Notes: generated by a model not told the origin, from the letters alone. A stretch of DNA of 64,000 nt from an uncultured Actinomycetes bacterium (GCA_963793655.1 CAWCAV010000010.1:285455-349454), one strand, 5' to 3'. Shown: positions 16,325 through 34,620, counted from the stretch's first letter. Translations and numbers: made by a program.

Positions 16325-16992
16325 TCAGGCGAGGGCCACGGGCCCGGCGCTGCTCGAGAAGCTCCTTCGCGCGCTTCGTGGCGCTCGCCGCGTCGGGCGC
16401 GTAGCCGTCGGCGCCGACCACGTCGGCGTACTCCTGGGTCACAGGCGCGCCACCGACCATGATGATCACGTCGTCGCGCAGCCCGGCCTTCTCGATCGCC
16501 TCGATGTTCACCTTGAACATCGGCATCGTCGTCGTCAGGAACGCCGAGAAGCCGACGACGTCGGGCTTGTGCTCCTGGATCGCCTCGATGAACGTCTCGG
16601 GCGCGACCTGCACGCCGATGTCGACCACGTTGAAGCCGGCGCCCTCGAGCATGATGTCGACGAGGTTCTTGCCGATGTCGTGCACGTCGCCCTTGACCGT
16701 GCCCATCAGGAACGTGCCGATCGGCTCCGACGTCGGTCTTCGCAAGCAGCGGACGCAGCAGCTCGAGCGCGCCGGACATCGCGCGACCGGCGATCAGCAT
16801 CTCCGGCACGAAGAAGTCGCCGCGCTCGAAGCGGGCTCCGACCTCTTCCAGCGCCGGGATCAGCGCCTCGAACAGCATCGTCTCGGGGTGCATTCCCGCG
16901 GCGATCCCCTGCTCCGTGAGCCCCACGACCTCGGGCTTGTTCCCGACCAGGGTGTAGTCGTAGAGACCCTGGAGGATCTCGTCGGCGTTCAT
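16325..16992 (-). CDS. Stand-alone corrinoid (B12-binding) protein, frameshifted
   Basis: Cap domain FVPEML plus GDVHDIGKNLV and GGAP B12 motifs. Confidence 0.93.
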
Positions 16993-17806
16993 GACTCCTC
17001 GTACTCCTTCCGGATGGTAGAGACGGATCAGCTCGGACAGCGCGCGAGCCTCCTCGACGACTTGTTGGGCGACATCGCCGAGCCGCTCCCGTGCTCGTGC
17101 GCACCGTCGGCGCGGAGACGGAGATCGCGGCGATCACCGAGCCCGCGAGCCCCGTACACGGGCGCAGCGGCCGAGCAGAGGCCTTCGTCGAGCTCCTCCC
17201 ACGTCGTCGCGTAGCCGTCCCGCCGAACCCGATCGAGTTCGGCGAACAGGGCTTCCAGAGAGGTGATCGTCTCGAGGACCGAGGCGAGCGAGGCGGCCGA
17301 ACGGGGGCTGGGCGGCACCGAAAGCCATGAAGACCTTGCCCATCGACGACGCGTGGATCGGGATGCGACGGCCGACCCAGTTGCCGGCTCCCGAGGGGGT
17401 GATTGCTGTCGACCTGCGCGAGGCGCGCGACGCCCGCGGGAGTCGGGATGCCGATGTTCGCCGTCTCCCCCGTTGTCGCGCCGAGCCGCTCGAGGAACGG
17501 CAGCGCAAGGGTCGCGAGATCCCCGACGGCCGAGTCCCTGCGCGCGTACTCGACGAGTACCGGGCCGGGGCGAAAGCCCCCGCCGCGCCGACGTTGCGCG
17601 AGCCCGTTCCGCTCGAGCGCGCGCAGGAGGCGAGCGGCGGTGGTCTTCGGCAGCTGGGTCTCCTCCATCAGGCCCGAAAGGCTGACCGCGTCGTCGCTCT
17701 CGACCAGGCGAACGAGGATCCGCGCGGCTCTGTCGATGGACTGGCTTCCGTCTTCGATCTTGGTCATCGGTACCGGATCATGGTACCAAACCTGCGCTTC
17801 GCTCAT
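16989..17806 (-). CDS. IclR family transcriptional regulator, frameshifted
   Basis: QSIDRAARIL HTH, GETANI, HASSMGK, GLCSAAAPV, AAISVS. Confidence 0.9.
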
Positions 17807-18184
17807 GTATATGGTCGTCTCATCGGCTAGGATAGTACGGGTGAGTGCCGCATGGTGGAACTCGAGCCGGTCGGGACGACGCCGCGAGGCTGTGGACGCG
17901 GCAGCGGTTCGGATCGCTCCTCATGATCCCGGACGGGCCTCCGTGACTGCATGCTCGCCGGCCATTCGGCGCGGGGCGTGGCGGTGTGCGACAGCCGTGT
18001 GCTCTCCGGCGGCCGCATGCCTGAGCGAGCCCGTCGTGGCGCAAGCGCCGATCAGGCACTCTAGGCCCGAGCGAGGAAGCGAGATAACGGCGCCTCTCGG
18101 CGATCAGCTCCGCTCCGAGGCGCTCGCACATCTCGACCAGTCGACGGCCGGACGCCCAGTCGTGCAGAGCAAAGGAGAACGACC

Positions 18185-19362
18185 GTGAAGACCGCCGAGC
18201 GCACACGCATCGCCTTCCAGCGTGGAACTCCCGACCGCGTGCCGATCCACTGCTGGCTCGGGCTGCCGCTGATCAAGAAGCTCCGGCCGGCCCGACAAGT
18301 CGTTTCTCGACCTGTTCGAGCTCTGGATCGACGACCCGATGGGCTCGATCGTGAAGATGCAGCAGGATCTCGGGCTCGACCCGATGATCACGACCTACAG
18401 CCAGCACATCGGCGAGCACGAGATCTGGCCGCGCATGCTGTTCCCGCGCCCGTACGAGACCGACACGTGGGTCGAGACGTTCGAGGTCACGGGCAGCGGC
18501 GACGGCTGGCGCGAGCACTCCCACACGATCCGCACGCCGGACGGCGACCTCGACTACTCGTACCGCACCGAGGACGGCTTCGGCACGTCGTGCCACGACT
18601 TCCTGCTCAAGGGGGACGAGCCGGAGACGAAGCTCCCCGCCCTGCGTCACTTCCCGTCCGCCGACCTGTACGACATGACCGTGCTCGACGGGCATGGTCG
18701 AGAAGGTCGGCGACGAGGCCTGGTGGCTGCATCACGTGATCGGGCCCGTGGGACATGGCGGCCGAGATCCGCGGGCTCGTCGACCTCTCGATGGACATCT
18801 ACGACCGGCCCGCGTTCGTCCACGACCTGATGCGCATCTGCACCGACTGGCTCAAGGGCTTCTACCGCCGGCTCGGTGAGACCGGGCATCCACTCGATCT
18901 CGATGAACGAGACGTGGACGGGCGTCGGCGTCGCGCGCGACCATTTCGTCGAGTTCATGAAGCCGTACGAGCCGGAGTGCGTGCAGGCCGCGCACGACGC
19001 CGGCTACCTGGTCAGCTTCCACAACTGCGGCCGCGCGACGCTCCTGCTCGAGGACATCGCCGACACGGGGCCGGACGCCGTCGAGACGCTCACCTCCGAG
19101 CCGCTCCTCCGGCGACGTCGACCTCGCAGACGCGAAGCAGCGAATCGGCGACCGCGTCTGCCTCTTCGGCGGGTTCAACGAGCACCTCCTCCACGAGGGC
19201 GACGCCGACGCCGTCGAGCGCCGAGGTGCAGCGCTGCCTCGACGCGGCGATGGCGGGCGGCGGCTACGTCCTTCGCTCGACCGGGCCAGATCTTCGACGC
19301 CAAGCCGGGCCTGATCGAGCTCATGTGCGAGACGGTCGCGCGAGCACGGCCGCTACAACTGA
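18185..19362 (+). CDS. Uroporphyrinogen decarboxylase-family (MtaA/CmuA-like) methyltransferase, frameshifted
   Basis: [27 protein letters not shown]; divergent from corrinoid operon. Confidence 0.8.
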
Positions 19363-19377
19363 GCGCGGGAGCAGGCG

Positions 19378-21348
19378 ATGGACGCGCCCGACCTCTTCGA
19401 CGTCGAGACCGCCGCCGACGGGCCCGGCCGGGGCGCTGCCGCTGACGGCCGACGTTCCTGCGGGACAGCCCGTCCGGCGACGTGTTCGGCCTCTCGCAGA
19501 ACGCCGGCATGGGCTGGGAGGCGTCGAAGGTCGGGCGGGACCAGTTCCTGATCCTCTCGACGCTCAGGGCGGCGTCCGCGCCGACGACGGCACGCCCGTC
19601 GCGCTCGGGTACCACACGGGCCACTGGGAGGTCGGCCTGCTCGTGCGCGAGGCAGCGCTCGAGCTCGACCGGCTCGGCGGGCTGCCCTTCGCGGCGCACG
19701 TCTCGGATCCGTGCGACGGCCGCAGCCAGGGGACGACAGGGATGTTCGACTCCCTGCCGTACCGCAACGACGCGGCGCTCGTGCTACGACGACTCGTCCG
19801 CAGCCTGCCGCGACCGCCGCGGGCGTGATCGGCGTCGGCACCTGCGACAAGGGACTGCCGGCGATGACGATGGCGCTCGCGTCGTTCCGCGATCTCGCCG
19901 GCGCCGTCGTGCCCGGCGGCGTCACGCTGCCGCCCCGCCACGGGGAGGACGCAGGCGCGGTGCAGACGCTCGGCGCGCGGTTCGCCCACGGGCTGGTCGA
20001 CGCTGCGACGAGGCAGCCGACCTCGGCTGCCGCGCCTGTGCCTCGCCCGGCGGCGGCTGCCAGTTCCTCGGAACGGCGGCGACGGCGCAGGTCGTAGCCG
20101 AGGCGCTCGGCCTCACAGTGCCGCACGCGGCGCTCGCGCCGTCGGGGCAGCCGATCTGGCTCGACGTCGCGCGGCGCACCGCCGGCGCCGTGCACGACGC
20201 AGTGGCGCGACGGGCGCACGCTCGGCGACGTGCTGACCGACGAGGCCATCGAGAACGCGATGCTCGTCCACGCCGCGTTCGGCGGCTCGACGAACCTCCT
20301 GATCCACATCCCGGCGATCGCGCACGCAGCCGGGCTGCGCCGGCCGACCGTCGACGACTGGCGGCGGGTCAACGCGTCGGTGCCGCGGCTCGTCGACGCG
20401 CTGCCGAACGGGCCGAACAACCACCCGACGGTGCGCGTCTTCCTCGCGGGCGGGGTGCCCGAGGTGATGCTGCACCTGCGCCGGCTCGGGCTGCTCCACG
20501 TGCGATGCGCGGACGGTCGACGGGCCGCACCTGGGACGAGGTGCTCGACGAGTGGGAGGCGAGCGAGCGGCGGGCAGCGGCTTCGCGCCCGGCTGCTCGA
20601 GGCGGACGGAGTCGACCCGGACGACGTCATCTGCCCGCCCGGCGCGGGCACGCGAGAAGGGGATGACGTCGACGGTGTGCTTCCCGGAGGGGAACCTCGC
20701 GCCCGGCGGCAGCGTGATCAAGAGCACCGCGATCGACCCGCAGCGCTCGACGAGGACGGCATCTACCGGCTGACCGGGCCGGCCCGCGTGTTCACGAGCG
20801 AGCGCGACGCGATCGCGGCGATCAAGGGCAGCCGCGGGTGAGCCGATCGAGCCCGGCGACGTCGATCGTCCTCGCCGGTCGCGGGCCGCTCGGCTCCGGG
20901 ATGGAGGAGACCTACCAGCTGACGTCCGCGCTCAAGTTCCTGCCCTTCGGCGGCAGGTCGCGCTCGTCACCGACGCACGATTCTCGGGCGTCTCGACCGG
21001 AGCGTGCATCGGTCACGTCAGCCCGGAGGCGCTCGAGGGAGGGCCGATCGGTCGGCTCGTCGACGGCGACCTCATCCGGGTCGTCGTCGACCGCGAGCGT
21101 CTGGTCGCGTCCGTCGACCTCGTCGGGCACGGGGACGAGGAGTGGACGGCAGAGGAGAGCGGCGGCGGTGCTCGCCGGCCGCTCCGTCCGCGACGACATC
21201 GCCGCCGGATCCGAGGCTGCCGGCCGACACCGCGCTGTGGGCGCGCCTGCAGTCGGTCAGCGGCGGTCTGTGGGGCGGCTGCGTCTACGACGTCGAGGCG
21301 ATCGAGCGTCGGCTCTCGGCCGACCCGGTGGCCGCGCAGCACGCGTAG
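19378..21348 (+). CDS. YjhG/YagF-type sugar-acid (xylonate-like) dehydratase, IlvD/Edd family, frameshifted
   Basis: [55 protein letters not shown]. Confidence 0.88.
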
Positions 21349-21634: not shown

Positions 21635-22559
21635 ATGCCGGACTACGAGATCGCAGTAGCGGGCGGAGGGCCAGCCGGTCTCACCGCAGCGCTCTTCGCC
21701 GCCCGCCACGGCCGGAGCACGGTCCTGCTCGATCCGCTCGGCTCGGGCGGCGCGATCCTCAACACTGAGCGAGTCGAGGACTTTCCCGGCTTCCCGGAAG
21801 GGGTGCCGGGCTTCGAGCTCGGCCCTCGGATGCAGGGGCAGGTCATCGACGCCGGCGGCGCGTTCGAGCTGAGCGAGGTGACGCGCATCGAACCGCGCGG
21901 CGGCGACTGGAGTCTCGTCACCGACGCCGGTGAGGTCGGCGCATCCGCAGTCATCGTCGCCACCGGGTCGAGGCCCCGCAAGCTCGGCGTGCCGCGCGAG
22001 GAGGCGTTCGAGGGCAGGGGGCTCAGCACGTGCGCGAGCTGCGACGGCCCGCTCTACCGGGGCAAGCGCGTCGCAGTGTGCGGCGACGGCGACTCGGCGC
22101 TCATCGAGACGCTCGAGCTCGTGCGACACGACGTGCGGGTGGTGCTCATCCACCCCGACGAGGCCCTCGCGGGCCAGGAGGCGTACAGCCGTCGCGTGCG
22201 GGAGAGCGCGCAGGTCGAGGTCAAGGCACCGGACGGTGCTCGAGGAGATCCTCGGAGACGGACAGGTCGACGGCATCCGCGTGCGCGACCTCGTGACGGG
22301 GGACTCGTCGACCCTTCCCGTTGCAGGGGTCTTCGCGAACGTCGGTCGTCTCCCGAACACCGGGATGCTCGAAGGGGTCGTTGACCCTGGACGAGCACGG
22401 GTGCATCCCCACGGACATCTGGATGCGCACCGAGCGCGAGGGCCTGTTCGCAGCCGGTGACGTCCGAGCGGACGCGCCGGGCCAGGCGATCACCGCTGCC
22501 GGCGACGGCGCGACGGCCGCCCTCGCCGCGCACCGCTACCTCGCGAATCGCGCACGTGA
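21635..22559 (+). CDS. Thioredoxin reductase-like FAD/disulfide oxidoreductase, frameshifted; end approximate
   Basis: GGGPAG, IVATGS, TCASCDG redox motif, FAAGDVR, AAGDG. Confidence 0.88.
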
Positions 22560-22570
22560 GCGCCCGACCT

Positions 22571-24236
22571 CTAGCGCCAGGCGTCGATCGAGACCGCCGC
22601 CTTCTGCCCCTTGTTCGTCCGGAACTTCGCGCGCATCGGGGAGCCCATGAAGATGCTGAAGTGCCCGTTCGTCTCGCCGCCGGCGACGACGATGTTGATC
22701 CGGTCGGGCTCGAAGACCGGGATCAGCTCGTCGGGCGGCGCGTTCCAGTAGCTCGCGAACGGCTCGACGCCCGCCTCGACCTCCTCGTGGATCAGGTTGA
22801 GCATCGACGTGGTCCCAGAAGCGCCGCTGCGGGATCCTGCGCGTTCTCGTGGATCCAGAGGGCGAGCTTCTCCTTCGTGTCGAAGCCCCTCTCGACGAAC
22901 TCGCGCGCGACGATCGGGTCGAGCACGAGCGTGCACGCCCATCCCGGGCTCGAGCCCGCAGATCATCGCCTTGAGCTTCTCCTCCCAGTACGTGCGCAGG
23001 TACTCGGCCCAGACGTTGCCCCAGATGTACGAGACGGTGACCGTGCTCTCGTCCCGGTCGTAGCCGTGCTGCACGTGGTACGGCTCCCACGGGCTCGCTT
23101 CCTCGTTCTCGGCGAACGTGATGCAGTTGTAGGAGAAGTTGCAGCCCTGCGAGCCGGCGTACGTCTCGCCCGGCACCGAGCCGCCCTGGAGGTTCTGCGA
23201 GAGCGAGCCCGAACGCGCGGCCGATCGCCGAGTTGGCGTGGTTGTACGGCCCCATCGCGCCGATGCCGCTGTTCATCCCGATCTCGTGCCGGATCGGCCC
23301 GTTGACGACGACCATGTTGCCCATCGAGGACATGCTGCTCTGGCGCCCGGTGTCGCCGCTCGAGGCGAGCGCGAGGATCACCGGGAAGTACTCCGGCGCG
23401 GCGCCCGCCATGACGGCGTTCACCGCGACCTTCTCGACGTCGAAGTGCCAGTGCTCCATGCCGATCGTCGGCCGGAGCTTGCCGACCATCTCGTCGGGCG
23501 CGTGGCTCGTCCCCGCCAGCATCCGCTCGACGCGCTCCTCGGTCGGCAGGACGATCGGCAGGAAGTCCGTGTAGCGGCGCTCCCGGAAGAGCGCGTGCAT
23601 CTCCTCCTCGCTCGCCGCCTCGACGTAGCGCGGCGTCGAGCGGTCCCAGTCCTCGCCGCGCAGCTCGTCGGTCGGGAACGGGACGCGTGAGCTGGTCGAA
23701 GACCTCGGCCATGAACGGCCGGCCGTGGACGGGGTCGTCGCCCTCGACGTACTGCCGCAGCACGGCCGGCGGCGTGTTCATCAGCGGCGTCGGGCACGAA
23801 CACCTGCCGCGCGCTCGGCATGCCCTGCGTCTTCACGCGTGTTGCGCACGAGGTGCGCGAACACGTTCAGGTGGACGCCCACGGTCGGGACGCCGTACTT
23901 CGACTCCAGATCGACGACGTGGCCGGAGACCTCCGGCGCGCAGCCCGGTCAGGTGCCGACGCCGATGATGGCCGCGTCGCCCTCGGCCTTGATCCGCTCG
24001 CACAGCTCGGGATCGGGGATGTGCTGGTTGCGCCACCGGACGACCTCCGTCCGGATCGCCGGGCCGGTGCTCCTCGAACCAGCCGTGGAGCTGCGCCATG
24101 AAGTTGTCCGAGTTCGCGAAGCCGACGTCGACGAGGAAGAGCTTCTTCCCCTCGAGCGTGTCGAGGCCGGCGCCATCCCGCGCGCGCTCACCTTCGGCGG
24201 GTATCCCTCGGGGTTCAGGACCCTGAACATGGCCAA
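22571..24236 (-). CDS. UGSC-family selenoprotein (UxxC) fused to a large conserved domain; Sec at 23949-23951, plus indel frameshifts
   Basis: [19 protein letters not shown] continues in frame; SECIS 11 nt downstream; C-terminal [23 protein letters not shown] and ENEEASPW blocks; GAGGAGG RBS before TTG. Confidence 0.82.
23922..23951 (-). promoter_or_regulatory. Bacterial SECIS element with its UGA codon
   Basis: UGA + 11 nt + GCCGG-AGGUCU-CCGGC hairpin; spacing and loop match E. coli fdhF SECIS as recalled. Confidence 0.8.
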
Positions 24237-24287
24237 CTCGCACCTCCTCGGACCGCGGTCGATGCTACTCGATCGGCGATCTCTGCC

Positions 24288-25050
24288 TCACTCGCCGGCC
24301 CTGGCTCGTCGACGCCGCCTCGCCGATCGAGACCTGCTGCTCGCCCAGGTAGCTGGCGATCAGGAGCTCGCGGTCGGCGCTGCAGCACCTTCGCGCGGTC
24401 GTGGAGGACGATCTCGCCGTGCGAGAGCACGTAGCCGCGGTCGGCGATCTCGAGCGCGAGCTGGACGTGCTGCTCGACGAGCAGCACGCCGCAGCCCGTG
24501 TCGAGCGCGTACTGGCGCACGACCGGCAGCAGGCGCCTCGACGATCACGGGGGCGAGCCCGAGCGAGAGCTCGTCGAGCAGCAGCAGGCGCGGCCGGCGG
24601 GCGAGCCCGCGCGCGACGGCGAGCATCTGCTGCTCGCCGCCCGAGAGGAGCCCGACGCGCCGCGTGCGCAGCTCTCCGAGCTTCGGGAAGTACTCGTACG
24701 CGCGCTCCTCGTCGAGGCGCTCGCCGCGGTAGCCGAGGCGGAAGTGCTCGGCGACGGTGAGCCCGAAGAAGAGCCCGCGGCCCTCGGGGACGTGCACGAT
24801 CCCGCGGCGCGCCCGCTGCGTCGGGCGAGACGCGCGCGATGTCGCGCGCCGGCGAAGGCGATGCGCCCGCTCATCGGACGGACGAGCCCCGAGATCACCC
24901 TCAGCGTCGTCGTCTTGCCGGCCCCGTTCGGCGCCGAGCAGGGCGACCACCTCGCCCGGCGCCGACGGTCAGGTCGAGCGTCGCGGATCGACCGCCGCGC
25001 CGGTCGTAGCCGGCGGTCAGGCCCTCGATGCTCAGCACCGCGTCGCTCAT
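24288..25050 (-). CDS. Branched-chain-type ABC transporter ATP-binding protein (LivF-like), frameshifted
   Basis: [36 protein letters not shown]. Confidence 0.88.
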
Positions 25051-27892
25051 CGACGCTGTCGACCACCGGCTCCGAGCTCGGCCGCCGCGCTGCCCGAGAT
25101 AGGCCTCGATCACCCGCGGGTCGCGGCGCACGTCCTCGGGCGTGCCCGTGCGCGATCACCTTGCCCGAACTCGAGCACGACCACGTAGTCGCAGATCCCG
25201 AGCACGAGGCCCATGTCGTGGTCGACCAGCAGCATCGCCGTGCCGGCGTCGACCACTCGCGCGCAGCTGGCGCGCCGAGCTCCTCGCTCTCGTGCGTGTC
25301 GAGCCCCGCCGCCGGCTCGTCGAGGCAGAGGAGCCGCGGCTCGGCCGCGAGCGCGCGCGCGACCCCGACCAGCTTGCGCTGGCCCTGCGTGAGCTCGTCG
25401 GGCATCGCGTCCGCCGTCGCCTCGAGGCCGAGCAGCTCGAGGCCGCGTCGCGCCGCCGTCGTGCTCGCGACCGGCCGCGAGAGCACCTCGCTTGACCGTC
25501 GCCCACACCGACGGGCGGTAGGCGGCGACCGCGAGGTTCTCGCCGCACGGTCAGGTCGTCGAACAGCTCGATCGACTGCCACGTCCGCGCGAGCCCGCGC
25601 CGCGCGCGCTCGTGCGCGCGCCAGCCCGTCGAGCAGCTCGCCCGTCGAGCTCGACGCTGCCCGCCGTACGGCACGAAGCCCGATGATCGCGTCGATGAAG
25701 GTCGTCTTGCCGGCGCCGTTCGGCCCGATCAGCCCGACGAGCTGACCCTCCGGCGACCGTCGAGGTCGACGTCGTCGAGCGCCCGCACGCCGCCGAAGCG
25801 CGACCGAGATTCCGGTTCGCGGCGAGGACGGCGGCGCCTGGCTCGCTGCGGCTGCGGCCGGGTGCGCGAGGGATGCCACGGTCGCGCACGGTCGGCGTCG
25901 GCGTGCGCCGCCCCGGCGCGGCCGCCTCGGCGGCGAGCCGCCGCTGCTTCTGCTGCTTCTTCTTGTAGCCCGTGCCCGGCGATGCCCTCCGGGTTGACGA
26001 GCAGGGTGACGATCAGCGCGAAGCCGCCGACGAGCAGCGCCCAGTTCCCGGACAGGCCCGAACCACTCGTCGAAGGCATGCGGGAAGAGGCCCTCGGTCG
26101 CGCCGACGCCCGCGAGGACGGCCCCGGAGACCATCGTGATGCCCGCCGAAGTAGGCGAAGGCGATCAACCCGAGCGCCACCAGGGCCCCGAAGCGGCTGT
26201 AGCTGACCGAGCCCGAAGTTGTAGGCGTAGAGCGCCCCGGCCATCCCGGCGATGAACGCGGCGATCCCGAAGCCGGCGAGCTTCGTGTTGCGCACGTTGA
26301 TCCCGGCCGCCGCCGCGGCGCGCTCGTTGGAGCGCACGGCGAGCATCCGCTGTCCCAGGCTCGCGCGCCGCACGTTGGCGACGAGCAGGCCGAGGGCCAG
26401 CGTCGCCGCGAGGACGAGGAAGCCGAAGACCGGGCTCGGGAGCTTGTCGTCCAGGCCCCTGAACGAGGCGTCGGGAGCCGAGGTCGATGCCCGCCGAGCT
26501 TCGGCTGCTGGACCGGCGAGCCCGTCCCCCGCCGCCCCACCGCGCGTTGACGAAGCCGAACTGCTCGATCGCGACGGCGGCCGCGAGCGTCACGACCGCC
26601 AGGCTGACGCCGCGGACGCGCAGGGCCGAGACGCGCGACGAGCGAGCCCGACGACCGTCGCCGTGACGCCGCGCCGATGAGCGAGCGAGATCGGGAACTC
26701 GCCCAGATGCCGCCGACGTCCGTCGTCAGGTGCGACATCGTGAAGCCCGGCGACGCCGGCGAGCGCGAGCTGCACGACCGAGATCTGGCCGACGAAGCCG
26801 ATGATGACGACGAGCGAGAGGCAGATGACGATCGCCGAGCAGCGAGATGATCAGCGCCTGCCGGAAGTCGTACGGGAAGCACGATCAGCGCAGACGACGC
26901 CGACGACCGCGCGATCGCCGTCGGCCGGAGCAGCCGCTCGGGCCGGGGCACGGCCGGGCAGTCGCTGCTCGACGCAGCTCGCCGCGGCCGGGCAGGCTCG
27001 CCCCGCGCAGGAAGAGCGCCAGGACGATGACGAGGAAGACGAAGAGCTCGGGCAGCCCCCGAAGCGGCGCCCCGCCCTTGTCGGTCGGGAACCAGCTCTG
27101 CGTCGACCAGTAGATCGAGGAGCGCCTGGATCACGCCGATCGCGAGCCCGGCGAAGCACGCGATGAAGAACGACGTGAAGCCGGCGAGCAGCGCGGCGCC
27201 GAGCGCCGGCACGACCTGGAACGCCAGCGTCTGCGCGTCGAGCGCGATCAGCGGCGCGACCAGCACGCCGAGCCCACCGGCGACGACGCGATGCAAGGAC
27301 GGTGTTCGCGACCGCCAGGCGGCTCGGCGAGAGGCCGGCGAGCATGGCCGAGACCTCGTTCTCCGACGCCGCCCGCGTCGACAGCCCGAAGGGCGTCCAG
27401 CGGAAGAGCGCGGCCAGCGCCGCTGCCACGACGATCACGATCCCCGCGAGGCAGGAAGCGGTCGACCGGGACGACGCGGCCGAAGATCATGACGGTGTCG
27501 GTCGGAAGGACCGACGGCGCCGACTTCAGGCTGTTGCCGAAGATCGACGATCATCCCCGCCTCGCAGCACCAGCAGGAGACCGAGCGACGCAGCCAGCTT
27601 CGCGAGCGGCGCCGTGTTCCGGAGCGGGCGGAAGATGGTCAGCTCGATCAGGACGCCGAACGCGGCCATGCAGGCCAGCGTCAGGACGAACGCCGGGGCG
27701 GTCGAGAGCTGGAAGCCGAAGTAGTCCGGTCCTGAGCGCCCAGAAGATGTAGGCGGCGAGCATCGCGATCGCGCCCGTCGCGACGTTGATGACCCCGGAG
27801 CCGCGGTAGATCAGGACGACGCCGAGGGCGATGCTCGCGATGAGCGCGCCGGCGCCGAGGCCCAGCGCCGCGAAGAGCAGGACGTCCCGCAT
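25047..27892 (-). CDS. Fused double permease + ATPase of a branched-chain-type ABC transporter, heavily frameshifted
   Basis: IYRGSGVINVA (LivH-like), GQISVVQLA and AVRSNERAAAAAG (LivM-like), GPNGAGKTT and LDEPAAG (LivG-like). Confidence 0.78.
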
Positions 27893-27963
27893 CCGATCTC
27901 AGTCTCTCGACGAGCGCGGTGGGCCCGGCTCGTCGGGGGCCCACCGACCGGTCTCGTCGAGCC

Positions 27964-29250
27964 CTACTTCGCCCCTGGCGGCTTCAGCCAGCCCGTGGCC
28001 ACCTTCCACTTGCCCTGACCCACGTAGTTGTAGAACTGGGTCTGGTTGCCGCAGGCGGCCGGCTCCCCGGGGACGACCTTGCCGCAGGCGATCTGCGGCG
28101 GCCCCAGCACGAGGGGGCCGCGAAACGCCTTGAACCCCGCGGTGATCGTCGCCGGGCTGATCTTGCGCGTACGGGCATCGCGTTCATGATCTTCACGGTC
28201 GCGAGGAGCTGCTCCCAGGCGCCCTCCGCGAAGACCCAGAGCAGGTCGTTCACGGTCGCCCCGTACTGGATGCCCTTCTTCAGGTACAGCTTCGACTGCG
28301 GCCCCGGCAGGTTCACCAGCGTCTGGGCGATCCCGTACGTCCACTTCGGGAATGTCGCCGCCTGCGTACGCAGCCCGCGGCAGGAACGTGCAGATCGGCG
28401 TCGAGAGCACCGGCTTCGAGTAGTTGATCTGGTCGATCGCCCTCGCGAACGGGACGCACGTCGTGAAGCCGAGCGCCGCGATGATCATGTCGGCCGAGCT
28501 CGCCTGGGTCGCCGCCCCGAGCAGGTCGGTCGCGAGCGGCGGGACGCCGATCATCGTGACCTTGACCCCGACCTGCTCCATGCGCCTTCTTGAGCGCCTG
28601 CGCCGCCGTGTCGGCGCCCGGGTCGGTCGGGTAGACGATCGGCGGTGGTCTTCACCTTGGGCAGGTACTGCTTCGTGTAGGTGCCGAAGGGGCCGAGCAC
28701 GCTCGTCTGGCTGCCGTTCAGGAAGAACGTGTTCTTCGCCGTCGGGTCGGCCGCGTTCGCGGTGACGACGCCGACGATCGGCTTCGTGCCCTTCACGGTC
28801 GCGTAGATCGACTGGTTCCCGACGGTCACGAACCCGTAGAGGATCGCCATCGTGCCCTTGTCGTTGACCATCTGCTGGCCGCAGCGCACGCCTTCCTCCT
28901 CTGCCTGCGCCCAGAAGCACTCGTTGAGCTTGACCGGGTGGCCGTGGACGCCGCCGAGCTCGGCGTTCACCATCTTCACCCCGGCGCGAATGACGTTCGT
29001 CGCCTGCGGGAAGTTGAAGTTGGGCGGGCCGCCCTGGCCGTTGATGAAGCCGATGGTGACGGGCGCCAGCTTCGGGTTCGCCTTGCCCTTGCCGCCGACA
29101 TACGACCTGGTAATTCAGGACCTGCGGCGGCGAGACGGCGCTCGTGGCCGCGACGGCCGAGACGGTCGCCGATGAGCACCGTCACGACTGCGAGCAACGG
29201 CCATCAGGCGTCGGCGTCGGCGATTCTCGACGATGGTTGCGCGGACGCAT
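27964..29250 (-). CDS. ABC transporter substrate-binding protein (Leu/Ile/Val fold), frameshifted
   Basis: PVTIGFIN, VNAELGGVHGHPVKLNEC; AGGAGG RBS; upstream of permease. Confidence 0.8.
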
Positions 29251-29476
29251 ACGTACTTCCTCCTTCTGCCGATCTACGGCATGCCGTCGAAGTGCCCGTG
29301 CGTCCGCGATCGCGCGAACGACCTCAGATGGGTCGCGGCCTCCTCGAATGGCTCGCGGCGTCGCTCACTCTCGGCTCACTCCCGCTCTCTGGACGTCACG
29401 ATCGAGCGAGATTACTCCGCTCGTAACGAAAGTGTCAACAAAAATGTCGATGACAGGCTCGCCGACCTGCCAGACG

Positions 29477-30382
29477 TCATGTCGAGCGCTGGTCGAGCAC
29501 CGTGCGGAAGATCGGGTTGGAGAGCAGGAAGCGGATGTCGTCCGCCCGCTCGTCGTCGAGCGGCTCGTCCGGAAACGAGGCGAGCATCGCGCGGAAGCGC
29601 TCGTCGGCGCCCTCGCGGAACTCCCGGTGGGTGAAGATGTACAGGTCGTCGCGGCGGATGCCTCGCGAGCACGCGCTCTCCGCATTCCCGCGGGTCCATC
29701 CAGAGCGGCGAGTTGGGGCGCTCCTCGAGCTCCTGCTCGAGCTCCGTGTAGCCGGAGTCGGCGTACCGCTCGGGCCGCGTCCTGCCGCCCTCGCGGATGT
29801 TCGTCTGCACCGGCCCGGGACAGAACGCGGAGACGCCGATCCCCTCTCCGGCGATCTCGCTCGCGGAGCGCCTCGGAGAGCCCGATCACCGCGGCCTTGG
29901 CCGTGATGTAGATCGCGGCGCCGGGGATCGGCAGGACGCCGGCCATCGACGAGGTGTTGACGATGTGCCCGCCCTCGCCGTGGTCGAGCATGCCGTGGCA
30001 GGAACGTCTGGATCCCGTTGACGACGCCGCCGAGCAGCACACCCAGGCCCCAGTCCCAGTCGTCGTAGCGCGCCAGCGTGACCGGCCCGAGGATGCCCAT
30101 GCCGGCGTTGTTGCAGAGCACGTGCACGTTGCCGAAGACGCGCTCCGCCTCGTCGGCCGCGCGCGCGAAGCCCTCGCGGTCGGTGACATCGAGCTCGATC
30201 GCGTGCACGTTCTGCCGCCGCCCGCTCTCGGCCAAGCGCTCCAGAGCGGTCTCGAGGTGGTCGGGACGGAGGTCGGCGATCACGACGTTCATCCCCGCTG
30301 CGACGAACGCCTCGCTCATACCGAGCCCGATCCCGCTCGCACCGCCGGTGACGAACGCGGTCTTGCCGGCGACCTCTTCCAT
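29477..30382 (-). CDS. SDR oxidoreductase (LigL-like), frameshifted
   Basis: TGGASGIG, NNAG, NTSS, YITAK. Confidence 0.88.
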   Translation of the reverse strand: MEEVAGKTAFVTGGASGIGLGMSEAFVAAGMNVVIADLRPDHLETALERLAESGRRQNVHAIELDVTDREGFARAADEAERVFGNVHVLCNNAGMGILGPVTLARYDDWDWGLGVLLGGVVNGIQTFLPRHARPRRGRAHRQHLVDGRRPADPRRRDLHHGQGRGDRALRGAPRARSPERGSASPRSVPGRCRRTSARAAGRGPSGTPTPATRSSSRSSRSAPTRRSGWTRGNAESACSRGIRRDDLYIFTHREFREGADERFRAMLASFPDEPLDDERADDIRFLLSNPIFRTVLDQRST

Positions 30383-30387
30383 GCGGC

Positions 30388-31279
30388 CTAGCGGTCGCCC
30401 GGCCAGGAGGCGAGGGCGCGCGCCTTCCCTGCGCGCCGGCTGTCCTCGACCGCCAACCGGTCCGCGGGCACCGGCTCGTCGGGGAATGCGGCGATGATCT
30501 CGTCGAAGATCCCGCGCAGCTCGTCTCGATGGTCGGGGTGGGTGAAGACGTAGAAGTCGTTCCGCTTGATCGCGCGCAGGATCTTCGCGCCGATCTCGTC
30601 CGGGTCCATCCCGGCCTCGTGCAGACCGGGGAGGATGCGCATGAACTCCTCGTCGGCCGGGGTCACGTCGGTCGAGAGCTCCGCAGGCCGGATCAGGTCG
30701 CTCTCGTAGATCTTGCTCCTGACGAGGCCGGGGCAGACCATCGAGACGCCGATCCCGTGCGGTAGCAGGCTCCAGCGCAGCGCGTCGGACAGCCCGTGCA
30801 CTGCGAACTTCGCCGTCGTGTAGATCCCGGCGCCCGGACCGGCGACGAGCGCGGCCATCGACGCCGTGTTGACGACGTGCCCGCCCTCGCCGTGCGCCTT
30901 GATCCTGGGCACGAAGGTGACGACCCCGTTGACCACCCCGCCGAGGTTGACGCCGAGCACCCAGTCCCAGTCCTGGTAGGTCGCCTCGGCGATGTCGTTG
31001 AAGAGGTTGATGCCCGCGTTGTTGCAGAGGACGTGCACGTTCCCGAGCGATGCGCTCTGTCTCGTCTGCGGCGCGCGCGAAGGCCTCCCGGTCGGTGACG
31101 TCCAGCCGGATCGCATGGACGTCACCCCCGAGCTCGGCCGTCGCCTCCTCGAGATGGTCGGCCCGCATGTCGGCGATCGCCACCTTCATCCCGGCGCCGA
31201 CGAAGGCCTTGGCCATGCCGAGCCCGACTCCGCTCCCACCTCCGGTGATGAAGGCGACTCTGCCTTCGACGTCCCGCAT
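30388..31279 (-). CDS. SDR oxidoreductase (LigD/LigO-like), one frameshift
   Basis: TGGGSGVG, NNAG, NTAS, YTTAK. Confidence 0.88.
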
Positions 31280-31360
31280 CGGCTTCGAGACCTTATAGGC
31301 TCGGTCGCGCACAGCCCAGCATCGGGAGGAGGCGCCGATGGCGACGAGGAGGCGACGGCG

Positions 31361-32500
31361 GTGGTGAGAGCGGACGTCGTGGGAAGCCTGCTGCGGCCCG
31401 AGTACCTCCGGGAGGCGAGGGCGGCCGCGCTGGCCGGAACGATCGAAGCCGATGAGCTGCGTGCAGCGGAGGACCGCGCGGTGCTCGAGGCGATCGCACT
31501 CCAGGAGGGTGCAGGGATCGAGGCGATCACGGACGGCGAGTACCGGCGGCACGGGTGGATCGCGTTGATCCCGATCATCGACGACCCGCTCTTCAGGGCG
31601 CCCGTGAGCGGCTTCGAGTTCCTCGACGCCGACTCCGGCTGGCGCAACCTCTGGAAGACGGGCTCGGGCGAGCCCGCCGACACCTCCGGGCTGCCTCCCG
31701 AGGAGCCGTTCGTCACTCGGCGGCTCGAGGTCGACCGCGACATCGTCACGGACGAGTTCGCGTTCCTGAAGGCGAACGCCCACGCGCGCGCGAAGTACAC
31801 GATCCCGGCGCCGAGCTGGCATCGCATCTACTGGCATCCCGAGCACTCGTCCGACGCGTATCCGACGTCGGACGACTTCATCGCCGACGTCACCCGCATC
31901 CTCCGCGAGCACGTCGTCGACCGGCTGGTCGCGCTCGGCTGCGACTACATCCAGATCGACGCGCCCAACTACGCCCAGTGGCACATCGACCCGGTGAACC
32001 GAGCGGCGTTCGAGGAGCACGGGCACGACATGGCGCACGAGCTCGTCGCGGATGCCGAGTTCGACAGCATGGTCTTCGAGGGCCTCACCGGCGTGACGCG
32101 GGCGATGCACATGTGCCGCGGCAACGCGCCGGGCGGCATGTGGGCTGCGACCGGGGGCTACGAGGCGATCTCGAAGGAGGTCTTCCCGCGCCTCCGGAAC
32201 CTCGACCGGCTCCTGCTCGAGTACGACTCGGACCGCGCCGGCACCTTCGAGCCGCTTGCTGACGTGCTCCCGACTCATCAGGTCGTGCTCGGGCTCGTGA
32301 CGACGAAGGACGGCACGCCCGAGGATCCGAAGGACCTCGTCGCCCGTGTAGAGGAGGCGACCCGGTACGTGCCGCTCGAGCGGTTGGCGGTCAGCCCGCA
32401 GTGCGGGTTCGCGTCCGGTGTGATCGGCGCGATGACCGCCGAGCAGCAGGAGGCGAAGCTGCGGCTCATCGGGGACGTCGCCCGGCAGGTCTGGGGGTAG
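31361..32500 (+). CDS. Cobalamin-independent methionine synthase II family (MetE-like Zn-thiol alkyltransferase core)
   Basis: ADVVGSLLRP, ITDGEYRR, IQIDAP, HMCRGN...LEYD...PQCGFAS. Confidence 0.9.
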   Translation: MVRADVVGSLLRPEYLREARAAALAGTIEADELRAAEDRAVLEAIALQEGAGIEAITDGEYRRHGWIALIPIIDDPLFRAPVSGFEFLDADSGWRNLWKTGSGEPADTSGLPPEEPFVTRRLEVDRDIVTDEFAFLKANAHARAKYTIPAPSWHRIYWHPEHSSDAYPTSDDFIADVTRILREHVVDRLVALGCDYIQIDAPNYAQWHIDPVNRAAFEEHGHDMAHELVADAEFDSMVFEGLTGVTRAMHMCRGNAPGGMWAATGGYEAISKEVFPRLRNLDRLLLEYDSDRAGTFEPLADVLPTHQVVLGLVTTKDGTPEDPKDLVARVEEATRYVPLERLAVSPQCGFASGVIGAMTAEQQEAKLRLIGDVARQVWG

Positions 32501-32502
32501 CG

Positions 32503-33688
32503 TCAGCCGTCCCGGTGCCGCTCGACGACGAACGCCTCGTCGTTGAACCAGAGCGCGCCGTGCTCGTGCAGGACGTCCTGCGTGACCCCGAGGTAGCGCC
32601 CCTCGCGGAGCGCCTCCTCGAGGCGCTCGTCCTCGATCTGGTTCACGTAGATGACGGCGTTCCAGGCGGCGAAGAGCGTTGAGGTGCCGATCCGGTCTCC
32701 GATCTCGGAGGGCAGGGTGTGCATCCGGTAGCGGAACACCGCCTCGGCGTCGGTGGGATCGGCGAGGTCGTAGTCACCCGGCCTCGTCGCCGAGCGCCGC
32801 CCGCAGCGTCTCGATCAGCGCGTGGCGGTCGACGGTGAACGGCATCTCGCCCGGCCAGAGCCGCTCGACGATCTCGGCGGCCGGATCGCGGCCCCATGAC
32901 TGAACCGTCAGGAGGCGGCCGCCGGGCGCCAGGCTCCTGGTCAGCGGCGCCAGGATCTTCTCGACCTTGAAGGCAGCGCCCATGCGCGCGCGCCACGGTT
33001 GCGACGCGAGCACGAAGTCGTACGACGTGTCGCGCTGCCGGACCCGGCCGATGACGTCGTCGAGCAGGAACTCGTGGTCGCGGCGGTAGAGCACGAGGAC
33101 CGACGGCTGCTGCGGCACCGGGTTGCCGGTCTCCGGATTCGGGCTCGTCCCCCAGCCCGAAGCGAGGATGGGCCCGAGCGCCTCGATCTGCTCGCCGAGC
33201 TCGTGCGCGGATGCGCCTTCGAGCGGCACCTCCCGCCAGCTGAGAATCGCGGCCCTCTCCGGATCGCTCGGCTGGAGCGCGGGCGCGTCGGCGTAGGACA
33301 GGTTCGTGACGACGAGCACCGTGTGGGGGTGCTCGACGAAGCGGTCCGGCATCTTCTCGAGCCCGAGGCGGACGTCCTCGAGGCTGATCTCCTTCGCCAC
33401 CGCGAGCACGGGCACGGTCGGAAAGCGGTGGTGCACCGTCCGGAGCACGCGCGAGAGCACGGTCCCGTCGCCCATGCCCGCGTCGAAGAGGCGAAGCGCC
33501 GGAGGTGTCGGCCGCAGCTCCGTCAGCTCGTCGGCGCAGCGGGCCGCGATGACGGCCTTCTCGTTGCACGTGGTGACGAAGGCCAGGTACTTCTGGCGGT
33601 TGTCGTAGAAGCGAAACGGGGTCGACTCGGCCGCACGGGTCGGCTGCGCGGGCTTCGTCGGGCGCGATTGGTCGCTCGGCTCACCCAA
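32503..33688 (-). CDS. Class I SAM-dependent methyltransferase-like protein, frameshift near 32750
   Basis: FDAGMGDG motif I; YDFVLASQ, LAPGGRLL. Confidence 0.7.
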
Positions 33689-34620
33689 AGACGATCACCG
33701 CGCGGCCGCGCAGGCCGCCGGCCTCCATGCGGCGTTGCGCGTCGGCCGCCTGCTCCGGGGGATACGTGTCGGCGACCCGCAGCGCCAGCACGCCCCGCTC
33801 CGCGAGCTCGCGCGCCTCCAGCAGCCAGTCCGTCCGGTCGAGCACGGTCCCGACCATGACCCGCTGGATCCGGATGCCCTCCTCGACGTCGTCGCCGTCC
33901 CAGCCCCTGACGACGGCGATGCGCGCCGCCGCCGCGGATGGCCGCGAACATGCCGCGCCCGAGGAGCGCCGTGTCGAAGACGGCGTCGACACCCTCGGGA
34001 ACAACGTCGCGCACCGCGGCCGCGAGCTCGGCGCCACGCGGCAGAACGACAGCGGCGCCGAAGCTTCGGACGAGCTCCTCGTCCTCCGGGCTTGCGTCGG
34101 CGAGCACGCGGAGCCCGCGGTCCTTCGCGATGCCGATCACGTAGGAGGCGAGCAGGCCCGCGCCTCCGGTGACGGCGAGCGTCTGGCCCTCGACGAGGCC
34201 GAGAAGGTCGAGGCCGTGCAGCGCCGTTAACCCGTTCATCGGCAGCGTCGCCGCCTGCTCGAGCGTGGCGCCCTGCGGGACGGGAACCACGGACGCCGCG
34301 GGGACGACCAGAAGCGCCGCCTGCGCGCCGCCCTCCGCTCGCCGCGGGGACAGTGCGGCCATCGCCTCGTCGCCGACCGAGAGGTGCTCCACTCCGGCTC
34401 CGACCGACTCGACGGTGCCGGCGGCGTCCATGCCGGGAACCCAGGGTGCGGGCTGTCCCTCGACGCCGAGCTGTCGTACGGCGATGTCCGCCGGGTTCAC
34501 GGCGGCCGCCCTGACGGCGAGCCGGACCTCGCCCGGCCCGACATCCCGGACCTCGCGCTCGACCACGCGCAGGATCTCCGGCCCACCCGGCCGGGTGATC
34601 CCCACCGCTCGCGTCGTCAT
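33681..34620 (-). CDS. NADP-dependent MDR/quinone oxidoreductase, frameshifted
   Basis: AAVNPAD, PGMDAAGTV, TGGAG, VDAVFD. Confidence 0.88.

Follow-up and report, generated by a model that had tools for sequence, protein, structure and literature searches.

The window analysed here is a stretch of 64,000 nucleotides from an uncultured Actinomycetes bacterium (GCA_963793655.1 CAWCAV010000010.1:285455-349454). Between positions 21,635 and 32,500 it carries a block of eight genes, here called the cassette, which an earlier note made from the sequence alone had interpreted as a candidate glutathione-independent, selenoprotein-based system for the cleavage of lignin beta-O-4-type aryl ethers. In six-frame translation of the window, all eight genes are found where that note had placed them (Table 1). 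Two tandem short-chain dehydrogenases/reductases (SDR_A and SDR_B), an ATP-binding cassette (ABC) importer and a selenoprotein of the UGSC family are co-oriented, flanked by the convergent gene of a thioredoxin reductase (TrxR)-like protein and the divergent gene of a MetE-like protein. The SDR motifs YDDWDW, YQDWDW and RPERY..SGY are present in the translations, and there is indeed no glutathione transferase (GST) gene in the window, the GST N-terminal domain PF13409 having 0 matches there and 5 elsewhere in the genome.

Table 1. Features of the cassette and its surroundings, in window coordinates (ORF, open reading frame; MDR, medium-chain dehydrogenase/reductase; Sec, selenocysteine; SECIS, selenocysteine insertion sequence).
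Feature	Position	Strand	Remarks
SDR_A	31279-30388 (= 30388..31279)	-	LigO/LigD/3IOY-type C-alpha dehydrogenase homologue; N-S-Y-K tetrad full, Arg222 equivalent absent
SDR_B	30382-29477 (= 29477..30382)	-	LigL/LigN-type C-alpha dehydrogenase homologue
Substrate-binding protein, type-1, Peripla_BP_6	29250-27964	-	PF13458
Fused branched-chain-type permeases and ATPase	27892-25047	-	PF02653, PF00005, PF12399
ABC ATPase, LivF type	25050-~24265	-	Family assigned on G024 orthologue
Long-form UGSC selenoprotein, ~553 aa	24230-22571	-	Flavodoxin-like Sec domain and ~360-aa domain; PF24696
In-frame TGA, Sec of U-P-G-C motif	23951-23949	-	TGA in 96/98 homologous N-domains
SECIS-like hairpin, 6-bp stem, 4-nt loop with first nt G	23922..23937	-	20/20 paired
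TrxR-like flavoprotein, convergent, CxxC kept	21635..22551	+	TIGR01292 276 bits; frameshifted in assembly
MetE C-terminal-domain-like zinc thiol transferase, divergent	~31338-32500	+	Zinc ligands and homocysteine-binding Ser/Glu/Asp kept
Conserved sigma-70-like promoter site, TTGACA, 18-nt spacer	29409..29438	-	Ahead of transporter-selenoprotein genes
Probable accessory genes, beyond the first bounds: unassigned ORF and MDR-type oxidoreductase	32774..34610	-	

Compared with 52 kb of genome G024, of the same genus, the window matches at 21638-32502 and nowhere else, at 87% nucleotide identity, which agrees with the bounds first proposed and means that the gene block is not there by chance. The source assembly is a metagenome-assembled genome (MAG), 57% complete and in 11 contigs, in which almost every cassette gene is frameshifted. 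These frameshifts are probably long-read assembly errors, because the G024 orthologues are intact and single extra bases, at 22384, 22936 and 23204 for example, are missing from short-read contigs of related strains. Most tests and family assignments were run on the intact G024 orthologues (locus L009). Contigs from soil RNA libraries span 30/30 bins of the region; they come from related strains, their word shares with it are small and contigs cannot show transcription, and they were therefore not used as evidence.

The module is real and conserved. In a scan of GTDB species genomes, 22 of 23 loci are complete, with the MetE-like gene, both SDRs, binding protein, permease, ATPase, UGSC and TrxR-like genes, and the remaining one is a contig of 6.6 kb; the relatives are recorded as Gaiella, Gaiellaceae or Actinomycetes MAGs. 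The cassette is rearranged yet retained in L038, L071 and L098, where the SDR pair is immediately before the selenoprotein. The cassette core is present twice, near-identical, on the single metagenome contig of L071 (5632-20265), probably through assembly duplication. Among 251 genomes drawn evenly from the order, SDR_A is present at 70% identity or more in 5; the UGSC query matches the same 5 genomes plus one 51% paralogue, and the MetE-like gene is found at 79% or more in the same 5, with a further, fragmentary match in G471. Of these five, two are duplicates of genomes counted before (G523 = G355, G549 = G360). G471 has no UGSC gene, and its MetE C-terminal fragment overlaps a truncated TrxR N-terminal part (L211:9803-10770), which looks like the deletion scar of a whole cassette, or an assembly join. 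This locus adjoins the same M24 peptidase as is seen in L035-L037.

The co-occurrence of UGSC genes with these SDRs, which the earlier note had proposed as a check, is seen within the close subfamily and does not extend to most UGSC relatives, which are without such SDRs; no cross-phylum pairing of the two was seen among the loci examined. TrxR-like genes accompany the UGSC family more broadly, being found in the cassette loci and in 31 of 79 metagenome loci, in 20 of which the UGSC protein has less than 70% identity. The UGSC-TrxR pair is therefore a module of broader distribution, in which the Lig-type SDRs are the hallmark of one subfamily.

When the selenoprotein gene of G024 is read through the TGA it encodes 553 aa, and this protein matches PF24696 at 63.5 bits against a gathering cut-off of 25; NF041046, scored on the half after the TGA alone, gives 19.8 bits against an equivalog cut-off of 125. 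The in-frame UGA encodes Sec. In the alignment of homologous N-domains the two of 98 without the TGA have Cys; a SECIS-like hairpin, its stem starting 12 nt past the TGA, is paired in every sequence compared; and selA, selB and tRNA-Sec are present in 5/5 genomes checked, the source genome included. The hairpin fits the bacterial SECIS rule; its synonymous sites do not vary, and it shows one compensatory change, which 28 of 500 shuffles reach. The whole-region folding z-scores are unconvincing (0.79, -2.12, -0.71, -1.27), so that the hairpin rests on conservation.

In the AlphaFold model (pLDDT, the predicted local confidence, 96.6) there is a flavodoxin-like domain at approximately residues 28-190 and a 360-aa domain. 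The sequence has no meaningful match among solved structures. A fold search with the N-domain found generic flavodoxin/Rossmann-like matches only (best Z 10.6, root-mean-square deviation 4.1, 136 aligned; Foldseek TM score at most 0.2), and the ~360-aa C-domain has no clear solved relative (best Z 4.1, TM at most 0.23), which is no proof of a new fold. The family has been reported with 255 sequences in the GOS survey, including a fusion, 'UGSC/Unknown_1', with a guessed Trx-like fold (PMC2398784), and is entered as uncharacterised in PMC13188914. The cassette protein shares with it the UxxC motif, a PF24696 score over the cut-off and a fused C-terminal domain. Its flavodoxin-like model differs from the probable Trx-fold of PMC2398784, and its UPGC motif and fixed catabolic context set the cassette subfamily apart from other members. 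Two tandem UGSC paralogues of 67-75% identity are present in L077, L078 and L195 (G386), which could be a stereo-complementary pair. In translations, more distant UGSC genes in L084, L099 and L106 adjoin selA/selB/selD-like genes.

The surroundings of the Sec are similar to those in GrdB and PrdB (PF07355), with a strand, UxxC, a helix and a GxP.V motif. Alignment by hhalign of 93 UGSC N-domains with 22 GrdB/PrdB-like Sec regions (26 PF07355 matches minus three weak or broken ones and one without a locus) gave a probability of 95 and E 4e-8 over 69 columns; with the Cys masked the probability was 65 and E 6e-5, the best of 30 shuffles reaching 5.6. This likeness supports the view that the protein would work like GrdB/PrdB, and not that it is a member of that family. 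There is no PF07355 match among 100 UGSC family members at E of 1 or less, and none in G000; the 360-aa C-terminal domain is unrelated, and the cassette has no GrdA, GrdC or GrdE and no pyruvoyl proprotein. Glycine and proline reductases form and cleave selenoethers, with formation of a selenenyl-sulfide (PMC10298544), and a GrdB-type enzyme has been proposed to displace fluoride from fluoroacetate (PMC10838667). This chemistry is a precedent for selenolate attack alpha to a carbonyl, which, with selenenyl-sulfide recycling, is what is proposed for the cassette enzyme.

Characterised reductive beta-O-4 cleavage is that of sphingomonads, in which stereo-complementary C-alpha dehydrogenases (LigD/L/N/O) act first, followed by beta-etherases that are glutathione transferases; most Actinobacteria lack glutathione. 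Among solved structures the best match of SDR_B is LigL, at 264 bits, followed by LigO (233), LigD (221) and 3IOY (219; probably Saro_0793); the remainder score at most 150, and XecD 82. SDR_A scores 310 bits to 3IOY, 240 to LigO, 224 to LigD and 201 to LigL. By pairwise score, as distinct from a tree, both SDRs belong to the LigD/L/N/O subfamily, clearly separated from other SDRs, as the earlier note had suggested from their motifs. The assignment of PDB codes to Lig enzymes follows PMC4858972 in part. Guaiacylglycerol-beta-guaiacyl ether (GGE) induces the LigO-like Saro_0793 6-fold and the LigN-like Saro_0794 9-fold (PMC5892560).

The NAD-favouring Asp (equivalent to Asp36) is kept in both SDRs. 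SDR_B also retains the equivalents of LigL Ser144, Tyr158, Lys162, Pro188 and Arg222, with the non-essential Asp95 changed to Gly. In LigL, Arg222 is essential, its loss abolishing GGE activity (PMC4858972), and it is not conserved across LigL, LigD and LigO. The presence of Arg222 in SDR_B and its absence from SDR_A fit a reading of the two as an (S)/(R) stereo-complementary pair. In a search of a plasmid collection, in which 12 records matched, the closest relative of SDR_B is a protein of Sphingobium sp. V4 (59.9% identity) with the same substrate lid and C-terminus, whose gene forms a tandem with that of a LigO orthologue and has LigF and LigG orthologues less than 6 kb away. The SDRs point to the catabolism of lignin dimers, leaving unfixed which bond is cleaved.

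The TrxR-like protein, of ~308 aa, is of the low-molecular-weight TrxR type, and its TIGR01292 score is below the cut-off of 343; carrier genomes have a separate, canonical housekeeping TrxR. In the clade of the window HPDE replaces the HRR..R of the housekeeping enzyme, presumably the basic NADPH-binding motif, which suggests an electron donor other than NADPH. This donor is probably NADH from the SDRs. In L026, L027, L032 and L038 the selenoprotein is followed instead by a different TrxR-like paralogue (47-52%). The TrxR-like gene is adjoined by that of a secreted-looking SnoaL-like protein in L028 (12383-12958) and in 11 other loci.

In the carriers the best LigF match across 28 genome records reaches 45 bits, in the N-domain only, and the best LigE match 37 bits, also at N-domain level only. 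Neither enzyme thus has an orthologue there, absences to be read in the light of the carriers being incomplete MAGs; the LigF query gave 187-485 bits on control records of the plasmid collection. GshB, the one step of glutathione synthesis gauged with TIGR01380, is over the cut-off in 0/26 carriers versus 3/14 controls. PF02955, with only weak ATP-grasp matches, was discarded as too unspecific a marker of glutathione synthesis. MshC is below the cut-off in 5/5 carriers, so mycothiol is not an evident substitute. LigM-type O-demethylases, sought with a query validated against solved LigM, are present in 24/24 carriers versus 8/24 non-carrier relatives; at 70% identity or more the counts are 21/24 and 5/24, a comparison biased by the carrier-derived query. 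In L029, L034 and L039 the cassette has a LigM-type gene less than 10 kb away.

The MetE-like protein keeps the H-x-C, E and C zinc ligands of core (folate-independent) methionine synthases and of epoxyalkane:coenzyme M transferase, and in alignment with 3RPD its S, E and D correspond to Ser22, Glu73 and Asp188, the homocysteine-binding residues of MetE-type core enzymes being taken from PMC7857596. Unlike the core methionine synthases it is a specialised, cassette-specific paralogue (79-90% within the cassette, at most 47% outside) below every NCBIfam cut-off. The query matches 115 of the 251 genomes, the unpublished G404 included, mostly as distant paralogues. The MetE-like protein is probably an accessory homocysteine alkyl or methyl transferase, and could capture methyl groups or act as an etherase in a homocysteine relay. 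A homocysteine S-methyltransferase-SAM-methyltransferase fusion adjoins the TrxR-like gene at L030:13402-15117, L045:11426-13162 and, in G386, L195:4055-5830.

On the evidence above, the best single model is direct Sec-dependent cleavage of the lignin beta-aryl ether, to which a probability of about one half is given. A guaiacylglycerol-type dimer would enter through the ABC importer, and its C-alpha alcohols would be oxidised to the ketone with NAD+, the (S) form by SDR_B and the (R) form by SDR_A. The UGSC selenolate could then attack C-beta, expelling the phenol and leaving a carbon-selenium adduct, a step modelled on the similarity of its Sec region to that of GrdB/PrdB. The Cys three residues past the Sec would resolve this adduct, giving an aryl-propanone and a selenenyl-sulfide, which the TrxR-like flavoprotein would re-reduce, probably with the NADH of the dehydrogenase step. 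With that NADH reused, the route would be redox-neutral.

Such a cassette would start in the manner of the beta-etherase pathway and continue, in the proposed second step, in that of GrdB/PrdB, while being a member of neither. It has in common with the sphingomonad pathway (LigD/L/N/O, LigE/F/P, LigG/Nu-class GST) the tandem stereo-complementary C-alpha-dehydrogenase homologues with the NAD-selecting Asp, and the LigM-type demethylases that would act downstream. It differs in that its carriers are without LigE/LigF orthologues and GshB, in its non-homologous selenoprotein, TrxR-like protein, MetE-like protein and ABC importer, and in its host, a Gaiellales-type member of the Actinomycetota. 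The interpretation in the earlier note is partly supported: its testable predictions at the sequence level held, and the reaction itself is still inferred.

Several observations weigh against direct cleavage by the selenoprotein. No enzyme of the UGSC family has a measured activity. Most copies of the cassette have one selenoprotein, where sphingomonads use two stereospecific etherases. In the catalytic tetrad of SDR_B, Asn115 is replaced by Leu, as it also is in G386. The MetE-like gene is linked as tightly as the SDRs and has no place in the core model, and GST-fold proteins, absent from the window, are encoded by 24/24 carriers checked. Carriers are kin, so that their counts are not independent events. 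The UGSC/TrxR pair is widespread without Lig-type SDRs, which are found in 3 of the 79 metagenome loci, many of them short, and in 0/25 distant loci; all 3 carry a UGSC protein of at least 74% identity. Finally, L080 combines the same transporter and a UGSC protein of 67% identity with a classical SDR.

The SDRs themselves would allow another use of a lignin-derived substrate, in which the bond cut is not beta-O-4. The SDRs would interconvert C-alpha stereoisomers or oxidise an aryl-glycerol or aryl-propanediol, and the selenoprotein would reductively remove some other group next to the ketone, such as a hydroxyl. Lig-clade SDRs are also reported to invert the stereocentres of beta-1 dimers, LigD and LigL acting with LdpB and LdpC (PMC12997858). 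The SDR_A relative of Novosphingobium RL4 (53%, the best among the V4 and RL4 records) is grouped with a lignostilbene-dioxygenase-family gene, an amidohydrolase, a decarboxylase and a SnoaL protein, and a SnoaL-like gene recurs beside the TrxR-like gene in 12 loci. The enrichment of LigM would suit any lignin-derived substrate. Nevertheless, the closest plasmid relative of SDR_B is grouped with ligO, ligF and ligG, aryloxide is in general chemistry a better leaving group than hydroxide, and a lignostilbene dioxygenase was not noticed in the cassette loci, although no systematic search was made. This reading is considered unlikely.

It is improbable that the substrate is not derived from lignin at all, the UGSC/TrxR pair being a general reductase of a thioether, disulfide, sulfoxide or halide, with the SDRs recruited for some other aromatic or sulfur compound. 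Other UGSC subfamilies do accompany NMT1-type, peptide and TRAP transporters as well as numerous other enzymes, and members of the same SDR subfamily in Variovorax have unrelated neighbouring genes. The residue-level match of SDR_B to LigL and to the V4 enzyme argues against this, as do the LigM-type genes in every carrier checked.

Slightly less probable is a thiol relay, in which the MetE-like protein would be the etherase, with homocysteine as the nucleophile on the ketone, and the selenoprotein and TrxR-like protein would reductively cleave the resulting thioether in the role of LigG/Nu-GST. This would give a function to the retained zinc ligands and homocysteine-binding residues and to the cassette-specificity of the MetE-like protein, and the cassette would then hold the four enzyme types needed by the sphingomonad route; the homocysteine S-methyltransferase fusions beside the TrxR-like gene in L030, L045 and G386 are also in its favour. 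The MetE-like gene is, however, divergently transcribed, and we know of no MetE-family enzyme that displaces aryloxide from a secondary carbon.

An epoxyalkane:coenzyme M-type pathway, offered as an alternative in the earlier note because a MetE-like transferase, R/S dehydrogenases and a disulfide reductase correspond to it in outline, is very improbable, given the low score of SDR_B to XecD (XecE is not among the 60 matches listed), a reductase of the small TrxR type and not of the presumably large 2-ketopropyl-coenzyme M oxidoreductase/carboxylase type, and the fact that none of the loci was noticed to have an alkene monooxygenase nearby, with no dedicated search for this or for coenzyme M synthesis. 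Three of the readings together make it very likely that the module acts on lignin-derived aromatics.

Within the cassette, the TTGACA of the promoter-like site is invariant in 10/10 leaders between SDR_B and the binding protein. There is therefore a conserved promoter-like site inside the block, and the co-orientation of the genes is not proof of a single transcript. The leader (29235-29450, minus strand) has tandem direct repeats containing TTGACA over the -35 site, a possible operator, and an optional GC-rich insert of ~80 nt that is missing in L026 and L032. An Rfam scan of the window and of L009 found no family at gathering score, so there is no known riboswitch in the conserved leader.

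To the right of the MetE-like gene, the ORF at 32774-33688 (minus strand) has no Pfam match at 1e-6 and is 79% identical to a gene between UGSC and TrxR in L098 (11374-12471), and the MDR-type oxidoreductase at 33681-34610 (minus strand) is 68% identical to the gene after TrxR in L026 (12348-13283). Since both occur inside the cassette in other genomes, they are probable accessory genes. A relative of the ORF, possibly accessory, is beside the cassette at L025:639-1228. MDR-type oxidoreductases recur at varying positions around the cassette, and a second MDR subfamily is found between UGSC and TrxR in several loci, for example L024, L030, L036 and L041. To the left, at 16459-20841, are an IclR-like regulator, a frameshifted unassigned ORF and a dihydroxy-acid/6-phosphogluconate dehydratase, none of which is conserved with the cassette; the dehydratase and IclR genes left of 21600 were excluded as cassette members.

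Actinobacterial isolates are reported to cleave a model ether, the only characterised case being an oxidative one in Acinetobacter (PMC8861056). No paper linking a UGSC selenoprotein with lignin ether cleavage was found in the open-access literature. Tentatively, and at somewhat less than even odds, the long-form UGSC proteins would be reductive lyases of a class not recognised before, GrdB/PrdB-like but with a substrate domain that has no structural match, and the cassette subfamily would be a single-polypeptide, glutathione-free beta-etherase working in a redox-neutral NADH cycle in soil Gaiellales. If direct Sec-dependent cleavage is true, there would be a second chemistry for the commonest bond in lignin, based on selenium and present in soil actinobacteria, and a simpler biocatalyst that does without glutathione. 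A family of bacterial selenoproteins that is among the most abundant of the uncharacterised ones would also gain its first function.

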